Shown here piece after piece: positions 36,433 to 43,869 of a stretch of DNA of 64,000 nucleotides (position 1 is its first letter; each line of letters opens with the position of its first letter). Position numbers and translations under genes: made by a program. The stretch covers positions 1 to 64,000 of IMG/VR virus record IMGVR_UViG_3300033145_001546. One strand, 5' to 3'. The notes under the pieces were generated by a model, which searched no databases, was not told where the DNA came from, and worked only from the letters and a program-made list of their open reading frames with translations. This DNA is from a virus.

Positions 36433-37506
36433 GTGAAAAATAAATCTACAACACGGACGTATGGTGCTGCAGTAAGTGTGCGAGGGGACTGTTTGTACTG
36501 TCCTCTTCCTTTAAGTATTGACTCATATTTCAATTGCCTAACCGATTGTCACCATTGTTATTCACGCCGATTAAACCGCACGTGGGGCACAGACCTTAGA
36601 CCTGCCGACCCGGAACAAGTGCGAAAGAAACTTGAAAATGGATTGAAAAATAAAAATCCCCGGTCATCATTGGCTTGGGCTTTGAGACATAAGAAAACCT
36701 TGCGATTAGGCAACCGCACTGATCCATACCAAGATGCAGAAATGGAACATGAAGTTACTCGTAGGATTCTCAGACATTTGATTGATTTGGAGTGGACCTT
36801 TGTTATTCAAACTAAATTCTTAAACAACATGACACGGGATTGGGAACTGTTACAAGAGGCGGCAAAGAAGGAACTGCTAATTGTCATGCCTATCATAACG
36901 CCGGGGGGCTCATACGATTGGAAGGTGTTGGAAAGAAAGAGGACTTCATCCATTGCTACCAGATTAAACATTATCCGCCAAATGATAGATGCTGGTTGGC
37001 ACGTGGGGGTGAATGGAGAGCCTTTCATTCCCGGACTTCATACCATACATCAATTCCAAAAGATAATAAGACGATTGAAAGAGGTCGGGGTGTGTAGTTA
37101 TAATACCTATAATCTCCACCTCAATGACTACGTGGCCAAGCAGTTGCATTCTATCGGATTAGACATCGAGAAAATATGGACGATGAATCAGGATAAGAAC
37201 TGGGCCCCAATTCAAAAGGAACTCTGTTGCATAGCCCAACAGGAAGGAATGATTTTAGGATGCCCTGATTTCGTCAATACTGGACCGGATTGGAGGGAAC
37301 GAACTAACACGTGTTGTGGCATCCGGGTCCCAAATCCGTCCAAGTTCAATACCCATACTTGGAAACGACGATTGCAACGGGGGAAACCTGCCAACAGAGT
37401 TTTGAGAGGGACGTGGGAGGGGATAGGAGATAAGGAATTAGGCAAAAAGATAGTCAAGGGTGTGCCTTGCGATAATTATACGATGAAAGACGCAGGAATG
37501 ATTTGA
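36433..37506 (+). CDS. Radical SAM enzyme 1 (spore photoproduct lyase-like)
   Basis: CPLPLSIDSYFNCLTDCHHC (CxxxCxxC), TDPYQ, IQTK, EPFIPG; start placed at GTG 36433. Confidence 0.85.
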   Translation: MKNKSTTRTYGAAVSVRGDCLYCPLPLSIDSYFNCLTDCHHCYSRRLNRTWGTDLRPADPEQVRKKLENGLKNKNPRSSLAWALRHKKTLRLGNRTDPYQDAEMEHEVTRRILRHLIDLEWTFVIQTKFLNNMTRDWELLQEAAKKELLIVMPIITPGGSYDWKVLERKRTSSIATRLNIIRQMIDAGWHVGVNGEPFIPGLHTIHQFQKIIRRLKEVGVCSYNTYNLHLNDYVAKQLHSIGLDIEKIWTMNQDKNWAPIQKELCCIAQQEGMILGCPDFVNTGPDWRERTNTCCGIRVPNPSKFNTHTWKRRLQRGKPANRVLRGTWEGIGDKELGKKIVKGVPCDNYTMKDAGMI

Positions 37507-38366
37507 TAAGAAAAAATACTCCAATTGAAACTTACGATGTCCGGGGAAGGACGGTGTATGTTAAAAGGGAGGACCTGTGCACTGAGCCTCCAGGTCCCCC
37601 TTTTAGCAAATGCCGGGGGCTGTATGCCAAATTGAAAAAGATGCGGGACGAGGGCGTGGAAGTAGTTGGTTATGTAGAGACCCCAATTTCGATGGCGGGC
37701 TGGGGTGTGGCGTGGATAGCAAAAAAATTAGGTTTGAAAGCTGTAATCTTTGATCCACAATACCTCCACACACCCCCCGCCACCATTTTGATACATAGAG
37801 AAAAGTGGAAACAATACAACCCTGATATTATCCCCATTACAGCTGGAATGACCTGTGTGAATCAGCACATTGCAAAGAAGATGCTGAAAAAAGAGTATGG
37901 ACGGAAAGCTGTGATGCTTCCTATCGGCATCCCTTTTCAAGAGACAATAGAGGAAACGAGCAAAGAATTTCTGCGACTCGTAGGAAAAAAACCATGGTTA
38001 TTTCTTAAGCATATTGTGGTTTGTGTGGGGTCCGGAACGATTTGTTCCGGGCTGTTGAAAGCCCTGCAAGGAATAGGAGGAGATATAGAATTGATAGGGG
38101 TGATGGCCTACGATAAAAATATGAGGAAGAAAAGGAAGTCTATTTTCATCAAAGCTGGGGCGAAGGACCAAGGCACCCTTTTCCCCTCCAAAGTAGATTT
38201 CAGATTAGTAAATGAGAAATGGGAATACACCGAATCGTCAACTGTTGACTGCCCTTTCCCTTGTCATGCTTACTACGACTTGAAAGCATGGGAATGGCTG
38301 GTGAAGAATATTCACACTTTGAAAGGGACAGTACTGTTTTGGAATATAGGGAGTGAAGCAGTGTGA
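37503..38366 (+). CDS. Fold-type II PLP-dependent enzyme
   Basis: VYVKREDL...FSKCRG, CVGSGT, YYDLKAW, LFWNIG. Confidence 0.8.
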   Translation: MIRKNTPIETYDVRGRTVYVKREDLCTEPPGPPFSKCRGLYAKLKKMRDEGVEVVGYVETPISMAGWGVAWIAKKLGLKAVIFDPQYLHTPPATILIHREKWKQYNPDIIPITAGMTCVNQHIAKKMLKKEYGRKAVMLPIGIPFQETIEETSKEFLRLVGKKPWLFLKHIVVCVGSGTICSGLLKALQGIGGDIELIGVMAYDKNMRKKRKSIFIKAGAKDQGTLFPSKVDFRLVNEKWEYTESSTVDCPFPCHAYYDLKAWEWLVKNIHTLKGTVLFWNIGSEAV

Positions 38367-42261: not shown

Positions 42262-42994
42262 CGAGTATATCGAAAAGGCCGGTTTGATTTGGCATGAAGA
42301 TGAAGAGACCAAATACTGTGGGTGGTTGCATCCTGAATACAATACTGAGATATGCCCAAAACATTCGGAGTGGATGTTCCCGCCTATGACTTATAAAAGA
42401 CATTTTGTCCTAATGGGGAATGTCTACTCCGGCTTTCCCAAAAATCCATGTATGAATTATGAAAGCAATGAAGAATTCTTAGACTATCAATATATTTACA
42501 ACCCTGTAGATTTTATGTTTTTGGCGGGGCATAAATGGAAAGCATTTAGAAAAATCCTCCGACAATATCGTGAGAGAGTAGATGGAAAGCAGAAATACAT
42601 GAAAATAGCTTCAGATACTTTCCAAGATGCTATTGCTAAATTGCTTCTGAAGTGGGCAGGGGAAAAGGAATTTTTCGATAATGAGGTGATGATAAAGTAT
42701 GCCTTAGAGGGAGAGAACAGGTGGGGGATGTTCACAGATGAAAAATTGGTAGGATTGAATATCTGGGACGAGAATTTCATGTTTGTCAACTATCGATACT
42801 GTATAGATGATGGCACCCCCGGTCTCAATAGATATTTGCGGTACCATTTTTATACTCAAGGGGCAATTCCGAGCAAACAAAAACTTATCAATGACGGCGG
42901 TTCGCTGGGGGACGAAGGATTAAGAGAATTTAAGTTGAGACTAAATCCTCATGTCGTATACACAGTAACATCTTATAAACAAGAGAAACCATGA
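42179..42994 (+). CDS. DUF2156/LPG-synthase C-terminal-like (GNAT-fold) aminoacyl-tRNA-dependent transferase
   Basis: DYQYIY...LAGHKWKAFRK and INDGGSLGDEGLREFKLRLNP match the family pattern YIY..LxGKK..KR / IN..DLG.EGLR..K...P. Confidence 0.7.
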   Translation: MEDPRLTKEDYWEAVKNQNLMPNFWMTDEYIEKAGLIWHEDEETKYCGWLHPEYNTEICPKHSEWMFPPMTYKRHFVLMGNVYSGFPKNPCMNYESNEEFLDYQYIYNPVDFMFLAGHKWKAFRKILRQYRERVDGKQKYMKIASDTFQDAIAKLLLKWAGEKEFFDNEVMIKYALEGENRWGMFTDEKLVGLNIWDENFMFVNYRYCIDDGTPGLNRYLRYHFYTQGAIPSKQKLINDGGSLGDEGLREFKLRLNPHVVYTVTSYKQEKP

Positions 42995-43869
42995 AAAATC
43001 AAATGAAAATTGGGGTGACATTAGAAATTTTTAAGGAGCATAGCGCAATAAGGAGGGCCTATGCTTTGCCGTTGTCATCTAAGATAGATAAAGCAATTGC
43101 TTTGTTGATTGAATACGAAACGGAGGCAAAAAATATATCTAAAGACGGATATAGTTTGGCGTTTTCGGGCGGCAAGGATTCTGGCGTTATCGCAAAATTG
43201 GCCGAAATGGCAAGTATTCAACACACGATGGATTATTCAGTAACAACGCTCGACCCGCCTGAGTTAGTACATCATATCAAGGATAATTATAATGCGACTT
43301 TTCACCACCAACCAAGGGCATTACTTACAGAAATGGTAGAAAATCCAGGAGGTAAAGGGCCGCCGACAAGACACGGTCGATGGTGCTGCGAAAAATACAA
43401 AGAAAACACAAGCAACAGCCAGTGGAAAATACTGGGTATTCGCGCAGAAGAAAGCCCCCGCAGAAAAAAAAGATGGAAGCAAGTTATAATCAATAATAAG
43501 GTTTGCATCGTAAACCCAATCCTATACTGGACTATAAAAGATGTCTGGGCTTTTCATCTCGATCAAAATATCCCCAAATGCTACCTCTATAATGAAGGTT
43601 TTAAGCGTTTAGGATGCATTGGATGCCCAGTGGCGAATGTCCAACAACAGAAAATCGAGTTTGAAAGGTGGCCGAAATATAAATTTTTGTGGCGGCGGGC
43701 CTTTGATAGATTTTGGGATAAATGGCATGGTGTGCCCACTAAAAAGGGGGAACAGAGATATTTTGAAAAGTTTGGATCAGCACAAGGATTTTGGGATTGG
43801 TGGGTAAATAATGGAGCACGAAAAAAAGAAGATGCTACATGTTTAGGGATAACAGAATTATGGGGATAG
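42991..43869 (+). CDS. PAPS reductase family (PP-loop, Fe-S) protein
   Basis: FSGGKDS, RWCC, GIRAEES, NPILYW, RLGCIGCP. Confidence 0.88.
   Translation: MKNQMKIGVTLEIFKEHSAIRRAYALPLSSKIDKAIALLIEYETEAKNISKDGYSLAFSGGKDSGVIAKLAEMASIQHTMDYSVTTLDPPELVHHIKDNYNATFHHQPRALLTEMVENPGGKGPPTRHGRWCCEKYKENTSNSQWKILGIRAEESPRRKKRWKQVIINNKVCIVNPILYWTIKDVWAFHLDQNIPKCYLYNEGFKRLGCIGCPVANVQQQKIEFERWPKYKFLWRRAFDRFWDKWHGVPTKKGEQRYFEKFGSAQGFWDWWVNNGARKKEDATCLGITELWG

Follow-up and report, generated by a model that had tools for sequence, protein, structure and literature searches.

In phage M6, 5-(2-aminoethyl)-dU is produced by a dUMP hydroxymethylase (gp58), a 5-hmdU kinase (gp54/55), an amino acid:DNA transferase (gp51), a radical SAM (rSAM) isomerase (gp53) and gp52, a PLP-dependent decarboxylase of C-alpha-glycinyl-thymine in DNA (PMC8989533). 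The products of the PaMx11 pathway are 5-aminomethyl-dU and 5-acetylaminomethyl-dU, and its gp47 is a flavin-dependent lyase cleaving N-alpha-glycinyl-thymine in DNA. Mom, a GNAT enzyme of phage Mu, modifies adenine in dsDNA at N6 with the help of Gly-tRNA (PMC13219725). It is a precedent for GNAT-superfamily transfer of a tRNA-borne amino acid to phage DNA after replication, but it is a single-domain GNAT working alone, while the locus described here combines a tandem DUF2156/FemX-type GNAT with rSAM, clamp and peptide partners.

The locus is located within a 64-kb stretch (the window) of the 77,255-bp genome of an uncultured phage. The genome is complete (CheckV 100%) and has no tRNA genes. 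The operon and all features listed below are on the + strand. It is bounded by the genes of a DnaB-like replicative helicase upstream (33879..35273; phrog_19, E 4.5e-26) and a sliding clamp/polymerase processivity factor downstream (43903..44901; phrog_947, E 6e-22). The earlier note had described a tight gene run between helicase and clamp, and the genes are indeed placed as it stated, translationally coupled and mostly separated by overlaps or gaps of a few nucleotides (-4, -4, -20, +4, -4, +4, +12, -83, -4 and +33 nt from rSAM1 through the downstream clamp). Just 5' of rSAM1, a Lys-rich 182-aa protein is encoded (35779..36327), which has no match in Pfam, PHROG or NCBIfam. Of 62 non-redundant loci, 53 have a homologous ORF in the same place, flanked by DnaB and rSAM1 (BLASTP E 8e-9 to L017:4985-5638); it is a possible member of the module.

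The core of the module consists of rSAM1, rSAM2, a PCNA-like clamp, a micro-protein and a transferase, and is found in phages only. The neighbourhood survey suggested in the earlier note has recovered this set as a conserved unit from no fewer than 177 viral contigs, always between DnaB and clamp/polymerase genes. The clamp paralogue and the transferase are present in all 62 rSAM2 loci with sufficient flank and rSAM1 in 58 of them; the downstream clamp adjoins the transferase in 78/80 loci. In two relatives, of which one is complete, the transferase is present but rSAMs, clamp paralogue and micro-protein are all lacking, which counts against the reading favoured here. Since the loci all come from a single syntenic phage lineage, the co-occurrence may partly reflect shared descent. 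The module was not found in any cultured phage searched, and our literature search found no paper describing it. Most likely, it is a system of post-replicative base hypermodification that does without 5-hydroxymethyl-dU.

The gene of a fold-type II PLP enzyme (37503..38366; PF00291, 41.7 bits with a cut-off of 35; phrog_7093, E 3e-46) had been recognised earlier as that of a PLP enzyme and can now be assigned to the M6 gp52 family: the two proteins are 33% identical over the full length (E 2e-52) and the catalytic Lys is kept (K36 on K36). Among cultured phages it has 67 matches, all 80-99% full-length, 53 of them in Pseudomonas phages, the best ones being in M6/Yua-type phages. As in M6, the rSAM and PLP genes are side by side. 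The gp52-type enzyme accompanies rSAM2 in 35/62 loci (~55%). In three related loci, the PLP slot beside rSAM1 is filled by a flavin enzyme that shares 32% identity with PaMx11 gp47 (E 5e-34); unlike in PaMx11, neither ADDT nor kinase accompanies it, and the window itself has no gp47 homologue. The finishing enzymes are thus swappable, and the characterised relatives of both are found only among trimmers of glycine-thymine adducts in DNA. The resemblance of gp47 to the tRNA enzyme MnmC1 counts against base hypermodification.

Two of the remaining core members became apparent only on closer analysis. ORF 41229 (41229..41945), one of the two named expressly when a structure or family check of each gene was proposed, codes for a two-domain sliding-clamp paralogue of PCNA fold. 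All matches listed for its AF2 model (pLDDT 89.5) in a Foldseek search of PDB, ranks 1-50, are PCNA (E down to 3e-9), and in Atlas it reaches TM 0.66-0.69 to PCNA and gp45 clusters. The 53-aa micro-protein (42100..42261; MAGGKSRK...LLDD) was missed in the first reading. Its front end (MAGGKSRKSGGVSKALI) is invariant, its tail is rich in Lys, Gly and Ser, and KLLDD forms the C-terminus. The micro-protein was found in 143 of 162 sources (75 unique sequences) and is absent from both transferase-only genomes. Behind KSRK, little or no variation is seen at G(+5), S(+8) and L(+11). An [LFIM][LFIM]D[DEQ] end is shared, among 597 all-frame ORFs of the genome, only with the DNA methyltransferase (45002..46321; phrog_67, E 1.7e-62; C-terminus RRLLDE); such a rare LLD[DE] terminus would fit a docking site used by both proteins. 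The acidic 45-aa ORF at 41950..42087 is of uncertain status: it is not conserved, and its only tblastn match is in the source phage's own genome.

The micro-protein gene overlaps the start of the transferase gene (42179..42994) by 83 nt. We take ATG 42179 as the start; a TTG at 42161 upstream is less likely. The fold proposed for this gene in the earlier note, that of an aminoacyl-tRNA-dependent transferase, is confirmed by its AF2 model (pLDDT 92.8), a tandem GNAT of the DUF2156/MprF-C/FemX type whose top Foldseek matches are 2hqy, L-PGS 4v36, 5vrv, MprF, Sbb17 and FemX (all with probability 1.0, TM 0.5-0.68). The family profile matches 2hqy with E 1.8e-4. PF09924 is matched by 30 of 51 family members (best E 4e-8), the match of the source-phage protein being weak and below the Pfam cut-off. 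The family comprises 268 clusters at E<=1e-30. It shares fold, PF09924 and the conserved G-L-x-x-F-K...N-P end motif with the MprF C-terminal domain (L-PGS/A-PGS), FemX, Sbb17 and DUF2156 2hqy, but differs from them in being stand-alone, 270 aa long and restricted to phages. Characterised DUF2156/Fem enzymes aminoacylate lipids, peptides and small molecules, not DNA, and the invariant micro-protein could be the sole substrate, which speaks against the base hypermodification reading.

The micro-protein could be the transferase's true acceptor. A peptide-centred system of this kind appears unlikely, though less so than the other rival readings. The micro-protein itself would be what the enzymes work on or assemble around: its N-terminus or an invariant Lys/Ser would be aminoacylated by the Fem-like enzyme, and the residue would then be tailored by the rSAM and PLP enzymes (RiPP, pearlin or amino-group-carrier logic). 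The end product, serving the replisome or counter-defence, would be an altered peptide or a small molecule set free, and not a base. Such a system would agree with a micro-protein whose front end is invariant, whose gene is translationally coupled to that of the transferase and which is missing where the rSAMs are missing, with the peptide, small-molecule or lipid substrates of FemX, Sbb17 and MprF, and with the presence of N-myristoyltransferases, which acylate N-terminal Gly, among the weaker fold matches of the transferase. On the other hand, the only characterised relatives of the finishing enzymes work on DNA adducts, both characterised members of the SPL/gp53 type of rSAMs act on thymine in DNA, a DNA-encircling clamp belongs to the set, and the module is located within a replication operon. 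Moreover, the peptide could be a carrier en route to DNA, so this scheme is compatible with base hypermodification.

The two SPL-like radical SAM enzymes noticed earlier are present as paralogues of the SPL/M6-gp53 type (hhalign 99.8%, E 3e-28 between the families), where M6 has only one such enzyme. rSAM1 (36433..37506; NCBIfam PA0069/Rv2578c-type, E 2.4e-20; phrog_13321) has a GTG start in agreement with its homologues. Both proteins have the CxxxCxxC motif and four further conserved Cys, similar to the extra Cys of gp53, and probably carry two Fe-S clusters each. Judging by its family profile (hhalign 97.4%, E 1.2e-11, 256 columns), rSAM1 is a closer relative of the gp53 glycinyl-thymine isomerase than rSAM2. 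The likeness of the rSAMs to bacterial PA0069/Rv2578c proteins is at least as great as that to gp53, which counts against the hypermodification reading.

A naturally split intein, to which a homing endonuclease is fused, interrupts the rSAM2 gene where the first Cys of CxxxCxxC is encoded. ORF 38363-39601, whose nature was missed in the first reading, includes the 87-aa N-extein (38363..38623), which aligns to residues 1-88 of intein-less orthologues and is 73% identical to L003:11823-13223, followed by the intein N-half and the endonuclease (38624..39601; PT-HINT, Hint, DUF559; intein_Nterm; 'intein-containing Rv2578c rSAM'). Cys1 is at 38624, the Hint blocks reach ~38890, the DUF559 domain covers ~39284-39568 and the ORF stops at 39601. 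The 40-aa intein C-half with its HN end (39582..39701; Intein_splicing and intein_Cterm, E 1.6e-7) has its own ATG in a different frame, overlapping the preceding ORF by 20 nt. The C-extein (39702..40841; PF04055, 38.9 bits with a cut-off of 29.5) is 69% identical to the same L003 orthologue, and its +1 Cys opens the CxxxCxxC motif. In L074, L078 and L079, the C-extein is likewise headed by a Met-led IntC ORF, and L078 and L079 have free-standing homologous endonuclease ORFs in the same position. Dassa et al. (2009) reportedly described genes fractured by split inteins and associated with free-standing homing endonucleases. Here too, N-extein-IntN and IntC-C-extein are separate ORFs with the endonuclease between them, free-standing in relatives; however, in the source phage it is fused to the IntN C-terminus, and the gene invaded codes for a radical SAM enzyme whose cluster motif is split at its first Cys.

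It is quite improbable that the rSAMs are merely SPL-like DNA repair or RNA/tRNA-modifying enzymes, with neighbours that are unrelated passengers of the replication module. SPL, whose radical chemistry is directed at thymine in DNA, shares with the rSAMs described here a CxxxCxxC near the N-terminus and the COG1533 subgroup ('DNA repair photolyase', the former annotation of M6 gp53); rSAM1 matches the SPL family weakly (E 0.004), and the gp47-type flavin enzymes resemble a tRNA enzyme, as noted above. However, the NCBIfam SPL equivalog gives only 16 bits where its cut-off is 437, and the four extra Cys suggest a second Fe-S cluster, which SPL, to our knowledge, does not have. In addition, the rSAM genes occur either together with those of the clamp paralogue, micro-protein and transferase or not at all, a gp52-type enzyme is paired with them in more than half of the loci, and there are no tRNA genes in the source genome.

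The absence of a dUMP hydroxymethylase, a 5hmU kinase and an amino acid:DNA transferase, earlier stated for the window, extends to the whole 77,255-bp genome, where PF18724, PF18748, PF18723, PF00303 and PF12851 have no match (for the first four, nothing at E<=10). In five further complete genomes, PF00303 and PF18724 have no match at E<=1, and HMM searches of all six complete genomes found no ADDT, 5-hmdU kinase (HMUDK), thymidylate-synthase-like or TET/JBP families. Ordinary M6-type thymidine hypermodification, in which the host or genes too divergent to be recognised would contribute 5-hmdU supply, kinase and amino acid:DNA transferase as the early steps, is therefore very unlikely despite the homology of the late enzymes to M6 gp52 and gp53: tblastn with the M6 early-step proteins matched none of 142 loci, and we know of no bacterial host supplying 5-hmdUTP or the early-step enzymes. 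Compared with the M6 pathway, the module lacks hydroxymethylase, kinase and ADDT and adds the PCNA-like clamp, the micro-protein and the Fem-like transferase.

Other genes of the interval are less constant. The 128-aa ORF 40846 (40846..41232) has no family match in Pfam, PHROG or NCBIfam, and only one related contig carries its homologue; as a lead, it is possibly a small HTH protein (Atlas scores <0.9 pointing to HTH-type clusters). A PAPS-reductase-like PP-loop ATPase (42991..43869; SGGKDS, CC...CxxC; PF01507, 65.5 bits; phrog_424, E 7e-34) is coupled to the transferase in the source genome. It was found in 1/80 and 1/62 related loci, upstream of rSAM1 there, and its homologues are scattered across unrelated phages. 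Both genes are accessory and lie outside the conserved set. Although methylases, an HNH endonuclease, a deaminase and the PAPS reductase come and go here and all loci represent one lineage, it is hardly credible that independent inserts share this place by chance, since the core is retained while protein identities drop to 30-50%, overlapping genes indicate translational coupling and the core genes are jointly lost in the two transferase-only genomes.

Returning to base hypermodification, we favour on balance a module that modifies DNA bases with an amino-acid-derived group. We infer DNA as the substrate because the characterised relatives of the finishing enzymes (gp52, gp47) act on DNA adducts, the rSAM1 family is related to gp53, a clamp is part of the co-occurring set and the canonical families are absent. 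The new components would replace dUMP hydroxymethylase, 5-hmdU kinase and amino acid:DNA transferase. Before it can act, rSAM2 would have to be assembled by split-intein trans-splicing. The transferase would draw on charged tRNA for an amino acid, glycine being the simplest choice, and pass it to the micro-protein, acting as a clamp-tethered carrier, or to DNA directly. One radical SAM enzyme would form the bond to the base, the likeliest site being the thymine C5-methyl via a thymidyl radical, although thymine C5 can be named only tentatively. The gp53-like paralogue would rearrange the adduct, the PLP enzyme of the source phage would decarboxylate it to an amine-bearing base, and the PCNA-like ring would hold the machinery on newly made DNA. 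The PAPS-reductase-like ATPase may add an optional step specific to the source genome.

It speaks against this scheme that an acyl transfer from tRNA uses up the very carboxyl on which a gp52-type decarboxylase depends. The different route to an aminoacyl- or amine-modified base suggested in the earlier note is partly supported, namely as regards the gp52/gp53 relatives, the transferase fold, the missing canonical genes and the conserved unit, while the clamp, the micro-protein, the split intein and the accessory status of the PAPS reductase have altered the picture. Overall, the module can be considered a widespread yet unstudied gene set in the phage replication operon.

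The late enzymes of the module are clearly related to known ones, while its front end is an entirely different and conserved one. The module lies inside a long plus-strand replication operon together with genes for a primase, an initiator, a DnaB-like helicase, a clamp, a DNA methyltransferase, a two-part PolA-type polymerase, a clamp loader, a UvsX-like recombinase and an exonuclease. The contig carrying the window is a single viral contig of 77,255 bp rated 100% complete, the window being its first 64 kb. The packed gene run is bounded upstream by the helicase gene (33879-35273, plus strand) and downstream by the sliding clamp gene (43903-44901, plus strand). 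Since the junctions between these two genes range from -83 to +33 nt, with 4-nt overlaps the commonest, the tightly coupled run described in the earlier note is real. No tRNA genes were found in the phage, and Rfam gave no RNA families in the window.

Some peculiarities of the surrounding region deserve mention. The PolA-type polymerase is split into two ORFs (399 and 460 aa, 46314-49425) separated by a Cys-rich 177-aa ORF (47513-48046); in relatives the two parts are adjacent and this ORF is missing. The early/replication region opens with a pair of genes (26385-28592), for a MoxR-like ATPase (phrog_1297) and a 398-aa protein (phrog_1314, labelled HNH endonuclease). The 418-aa product of 51844-53100 has termini extremely rich in Lys and matches SSB only weakly.

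The PLP enzyme (37503-38366, plus strand) matches PF00291 above the Pfam cut-off and phrog_7093 with E 3e-46. The collection of cultured phages contains 67 hits to it, all nearly full-length, 53 of them in Pseudomonas phages, and the best ones belong to M6/Yua-type phages. Identity to M6 gp52 is 33% over the whole length (E 2e-52), and Lys36 aligns with Lys36 of gp52, the proposed Schiff-base residue (PMC8989533), as befits a gp52-type enzyme. Judging by its sequence, the PLP enzyme is a gp52 homologue and a putative decarboxylase, and the link to M6 thymidine hypermodification drawn previously is borne out. In M6, gp51 puts glycine on pyrophosphorylated 5-hmdU, the SPL-like radical SAM enzyme gp53 converts the N-linked glycine adduct into the C-linked one and gp52 then decarboxylates it (PMC8989533).

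In relatives, the interval between helicase and clamp is also occupied by a 243-aa protein with no assigned function (15 loci), an aldo-keto reductase (10), DNA methylases (9), DUF362 (6) and a flavin oxidoreductase (3). The latter takes the slot of the PLP enzyme and shares 32% identity (E 5e-34) with PaMx11 gp47, a flavin lyase which converts N-alpha-glycinyl-thymine to 5-aminomethyl-dU. The accessory genes of this interval vary among relatives (13798-14403 of locus L005 and the intervals of L006 to L161) and also include those coding for a dCMP deaminase, N6/N4 DNA methylases and an HNH endonuclease.

rSAM1 (36433-37506, plus strand) carries the CxxxCxxC motif, which is invariant in the families of both rSAM1 and its paralogue rSAM2 and places them in the radical SAM superfamily. 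PF04055 (cut-off 29.5 bits) scores rSAM2 above the threshold (38.9 bits) and rSAM1 below it (20.8 bits). rSAM1 also matches the bacterial PA0069 and Rv2578c radical SAM families (E 2e-20 and 1e-15), and a PDB sequence search with it gave no match. The two families align with each other with an hhalign probability of 99.8%, and with M6 gp53 with probabilities of 97.4% (rSAM1, E 1e-11) and 83% (rSAM2). Homology to gp53 is clear, yet identity is about 22%, and a gp53-type isomerase reaction is at most a possibility. Both families keep four cysteines beyond the SAM-cluster motif, which recalls the roughly 9 Fe per protein reported for gp53 (PMC8989533). The two SPL-like radical SAM proteins of the earlier note thus hold as radical SAM enzymes and gp53 relatives; however, the second gene is interrupted by an intein, and the match to the spore photoproduct lyase model TIGR03886 is faint, at 16.4 bits against an equivalog cut-off of 437.55, which does not amount to SPL membership. 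Taken with the gp52 and gp47 matches, the gp53 match means that the only characterised relatives of the two interchangeable finishing enzymes and of one radical SAM enzyme are enzymes that act on glycine-thymine adducts in DNA.

The rSAM2 gene consists of two successive ORFs (38363-39601 and 39582-40841) and is broken by an intein. Residues 1-87 of the first ORF and 41-419 of the second align end to end with single proteins of 455-480 aa in relatives, and the extein junction matches the intein-less orthologues. The insert starts with a Cys codon at 38624 and encodes a Hint domain and a DUF559 endonuclease domain. The first 40 residues of the second ORF form an intein C-half that ends in HN; the next residue, the +1 Cys, is the first Cys of CxxxCxxC. 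The Cys1 blocks, the HN/+1 Cys junction, the location of the halves on two ORFs in different frames and the intein_Nterm/Cterm hits all identify a split intein, so that the halves are predicted to be a natural trans-splicing pair cut at a catalytic cysteine. A sequencing slip at the 39601/39582 break was rejected because the same split architecture recurs in three divergent contigs, L074, L078 and L079. In L074, an ORF for the N-extein and IntN ends with a clean stop and is followed, after a 162-nt gap, by a Met-led ORF for IntC and the C-extein. In L078 and L079 the endonuclease has a free-standing ORF of its own; it is homologous to the endonuclease part of the window version, which is fused to IntN, and overlaps the start of the IntC ORF by 19 and 35 nt, respectively. 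Contiguous mini-inteins in L040 and L045 use a second insertion site, the third Cys of the motif, and rSAM2 of L063 has an intein at each site: a split one at the first Cys, a mini-intein at the third. Inteins at these positions and the existing NCBIfam model for intein-containing Rv2578c-type radical SAM proteins mark the CxxxCxxC motif as a recurrent intein target. In L073, the C-terminal part of rSAM2 is headed by an endonuclease-like ORF.

The ORF at 41229-41945 had been singled out for a structure search. Its AF2 model (pLDDT 89.5) is a predicted two-domain sliding clamp fold, every Foldseek hit in the PDB among ranks 1-50 listed is PCNA, and a structure search of the ESM Atlas agrees (TM 0.66-0.69). 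A PDB sequence search with the profile of this clamp paralogue gave no match. The complex predicted for the PCNA-like protein and the transferase scored 0.00 in a run made without controls and carries no weight either way.

Between the PCNA-like gene and the transferase gene lies a 53-aa micro-protein (42100-42261, plus strand), absent from the earlier list of genes and preceded by a non-conserved 45-aa ORF. Among 75 distinct homologues the front end MAGGKSRKSGGVSKALI hardly varies; the tail is rich in Lys, Gly and Ser and terminates with KLLDD. This C-terminus resembles RRLLDE of the DNA methyltransferase, and the end motif occurs in no other of the 597 all-frame ORFs of the genome. Such sharing would fit a common docking site, for example a clamp. 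The methyltransferase itself (45002-46321, 439 aa) covers about 230 profile positions over 420 residues and may carry an insertion.

The micro-protein ORF and the start of the transferase gene (42179-42994, plus strand) overlap by 83 nt. The best structural matches of the transferase model (pLDDT 92.8) are the DUF2156 protein 2hqy, the lysyl- and alanyl-phosphatidylglycerol synthase domains, MprF, FemX and Sbb17, a tRNA-dependent peptide synthase. The family profile also finds 2hqy by sequence (E 1.8e-4). PF09924 is matched by 30 of 51 family members (best E 4e-8), while the window protein by itself stays under the 27.5-bit cut-off with 18 bits. The profile matches and the tandem-GNAT fold together place the transferase family in DUF2156/LPG_synthase_C, in agreement with its earlier description as a GNAT protein of the aminoacyl-tRNA-transferase type. 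The enzyme probably draws an amino acid from a charged tRNA. Its coupling to an invariant-headed peptide suggests that the micro-protein is the acceptor (carrier) or the adaptor of the transferase.

Seeding with the transferase profile retrieved 117 viral contigs and seeding with rSAM2 retrieved 177, so the module is present in at least 177 viral contigs, a lower bound; gene neighbourhoods were taken from IMG/VR loci. Among the best 80 transferase loci, 78 adjoin the clamp, and the PCNA-like gene, rSAM2, rSAM1 and the PLP enzyme are found in 75, 70, 55 and 32, contig ends accounting for many of the missing genes. Of the rSAM2 loci, 62 have 3.5 kb or more of downstream sequence; every one of these contains both the PCNA-like gene and the transferase gene, 58 contain rSAM1 and 35 the PLP enzyme. 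The micro-protein was found in 143 of 162 sources. Gene order and coupling persist although protein identities drop to 30-50%. In two genomes, one of them complete, the transferase gene stands beside the clamp, and rSAMs, PCNA-like gene, PLP enzyme and micro-protein are all missing; therefore the other core genes travel as a block and the transferase is able to stand alone. As all module loci share one synteny, common descent and common function are confounded.

The transferase family is essentially viral. A search of 185,579 prokaryote genomes produced one hit, in a contig of viral origin that had been binned into a Melioribacteraceae MAG, from which a firm host assignment does not follow. 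An exhaustive profile search (E<=1e-30) gave 268 clusters at 50% identity, and among the matches listed all 150 of 150 are stand-alone proteins of 228-307 aa. Cultured phages had no match to the gene cluster at the DNA level, nor to rSAM1 or the transferase in tblastn, and tblastn of rSAM2 returned four weak hits, all in uncultured fragments. Full-text literature searches found no paper on the module gene set.

The last gene of the run (42991-43869, plus strand) codes for a PAPS-reductase-like PP-loop ATPase with a CC...CxxC motif. It belongs to PF01507 (65.5 bits against a cut-off of 22.5) and has the SGGKDS PP-loop. This gene and ORF 40846 were each found in one locus out of 80 and one out of 62 and lie outside the conserved core. 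As the PAPS reductase is missing from nearly all relatives, we rejected it as a core function that would activate the base in the first step. ORF 40846 has no family matches and a homologue in one related contig only; its HTH-type leads were all below threshold.

A zone depleted of CA/TG dinucleotides is located at 21200-24600 of the window, beside the terminase genes (rho 0.04). In 1.5 kb, 7 CA+TG were observed against 177 expected, and positions 22001-23000 contain 1 CA and 3 TG, with a CG odds ratio of about 2.4. Among eleven genomes, depletion was found in this one and, at the same place and in a milder form (rho 0.40), in the related genome G003. Since seven other module-bearing genomes and both transferase-only genomes lack it, the zone is not attributed to the module and was rejected as the sequence context of a modification.

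Searches for the canonical early steps covered the complete genome, and the lack of the 5hmU, kinase and amino acid:DNA transferase genes previously reported for the window extends to it. No dUMP hydroxymethylase/thymidylate synthase homologue (PF00303) was found in the genome itself (E<=10) or in five complete relatives (E<=1), no 5-hmdU DNA kinase (PF18748, PF18723) in the genome itself (E<=10), and no ADDT/aGPT-Pplase (PF18724) in the genome itself or the five complete relatives. TET/JBP hydroxylases are missing from this genome and from four of the five other complete ones, and tblastn with the M6 proteins gave no matches across 142 loci. The module has a gp52-type PLP enzyme in common with M6 and radical SAM enzymes related to gp53, but its genome lacks the M6 hydroxymethylase, kinase and ADDT. 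To our knowledge, all characterised amino-acid-derived thymidine hypermodifications in phages begin with 5-hydroxymethyl-dU, a kinase and an HhH-type transferase, and the only other tRNA-dependent DNA modification we know of is performed by a single enzyme, Mom.

The different route to an aminoacyl- or amine-modified base suggested in the earlier note stands as far as the late enzymes are related to known ones and the canonical front end is absent, while DNA as the substrate and the target base are both inferred. That the module may be a widespread variant of phage DNA hypermodification is partly supported. On the most likely reading, the missing front end is replaced jointly by rSAM2, micro-protein, transferase and PCNA-like ring. 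Via a thymidyl radical, an intermediate already invoked for SPL and gp53 (PMC8989533), the C5-methyl of thymine could be accessible to a radical SAM enzyme of the SPL/gp53 type. For the transferase step a precedent is offered by Mom of phage Mu, a GNAT enzyme which transfers glycine from Gly-tRNA to double-stranded DNA (PMC13219725), the likeness resting on the common GNAT superfamily and the published mechanism. After attachment to the base, the gp53-like paralogue and then the PLP enzyme would act as in M6. A weak point of this scheme is that the carboxyl group needed by the decarboxylase is consumed in acyl transfer from tRNA, which makes the order of its steps tentative.

We consider unlikely, but worth stating, a more specific version, in which the radical SAM pair, the micro-protein and the Fem-like transferase replace hydroxymethylase, kinase and ADDT, and a thymine-methyl radical couples to carrier-delivered glycine. 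In duplex DNA, the SPL-like enzyme would take a hydrogen from the methyl of ordinary thymine, and the resulting radical would join glycine brought from Gly-tRNA by a clamp-tethered carrier peptide. If this is so, a canonical DNA base would for the first time be seen to undergo direct radical C-H functionalisation, and DNA modification would gain its first peptide-carrier step.

If the module modifies DNA, it would represent new enzymology for base attachments, possibly on unmodified thymine, with charged tRNA and a sliding clamp put to new use, and its enzymes would be candidate tools for site-directed DNA functionalisation. It would also define a large class of phages with DNA that may be refractory to restriction, CRISPR nucleases and the usual sequencing chemistry.
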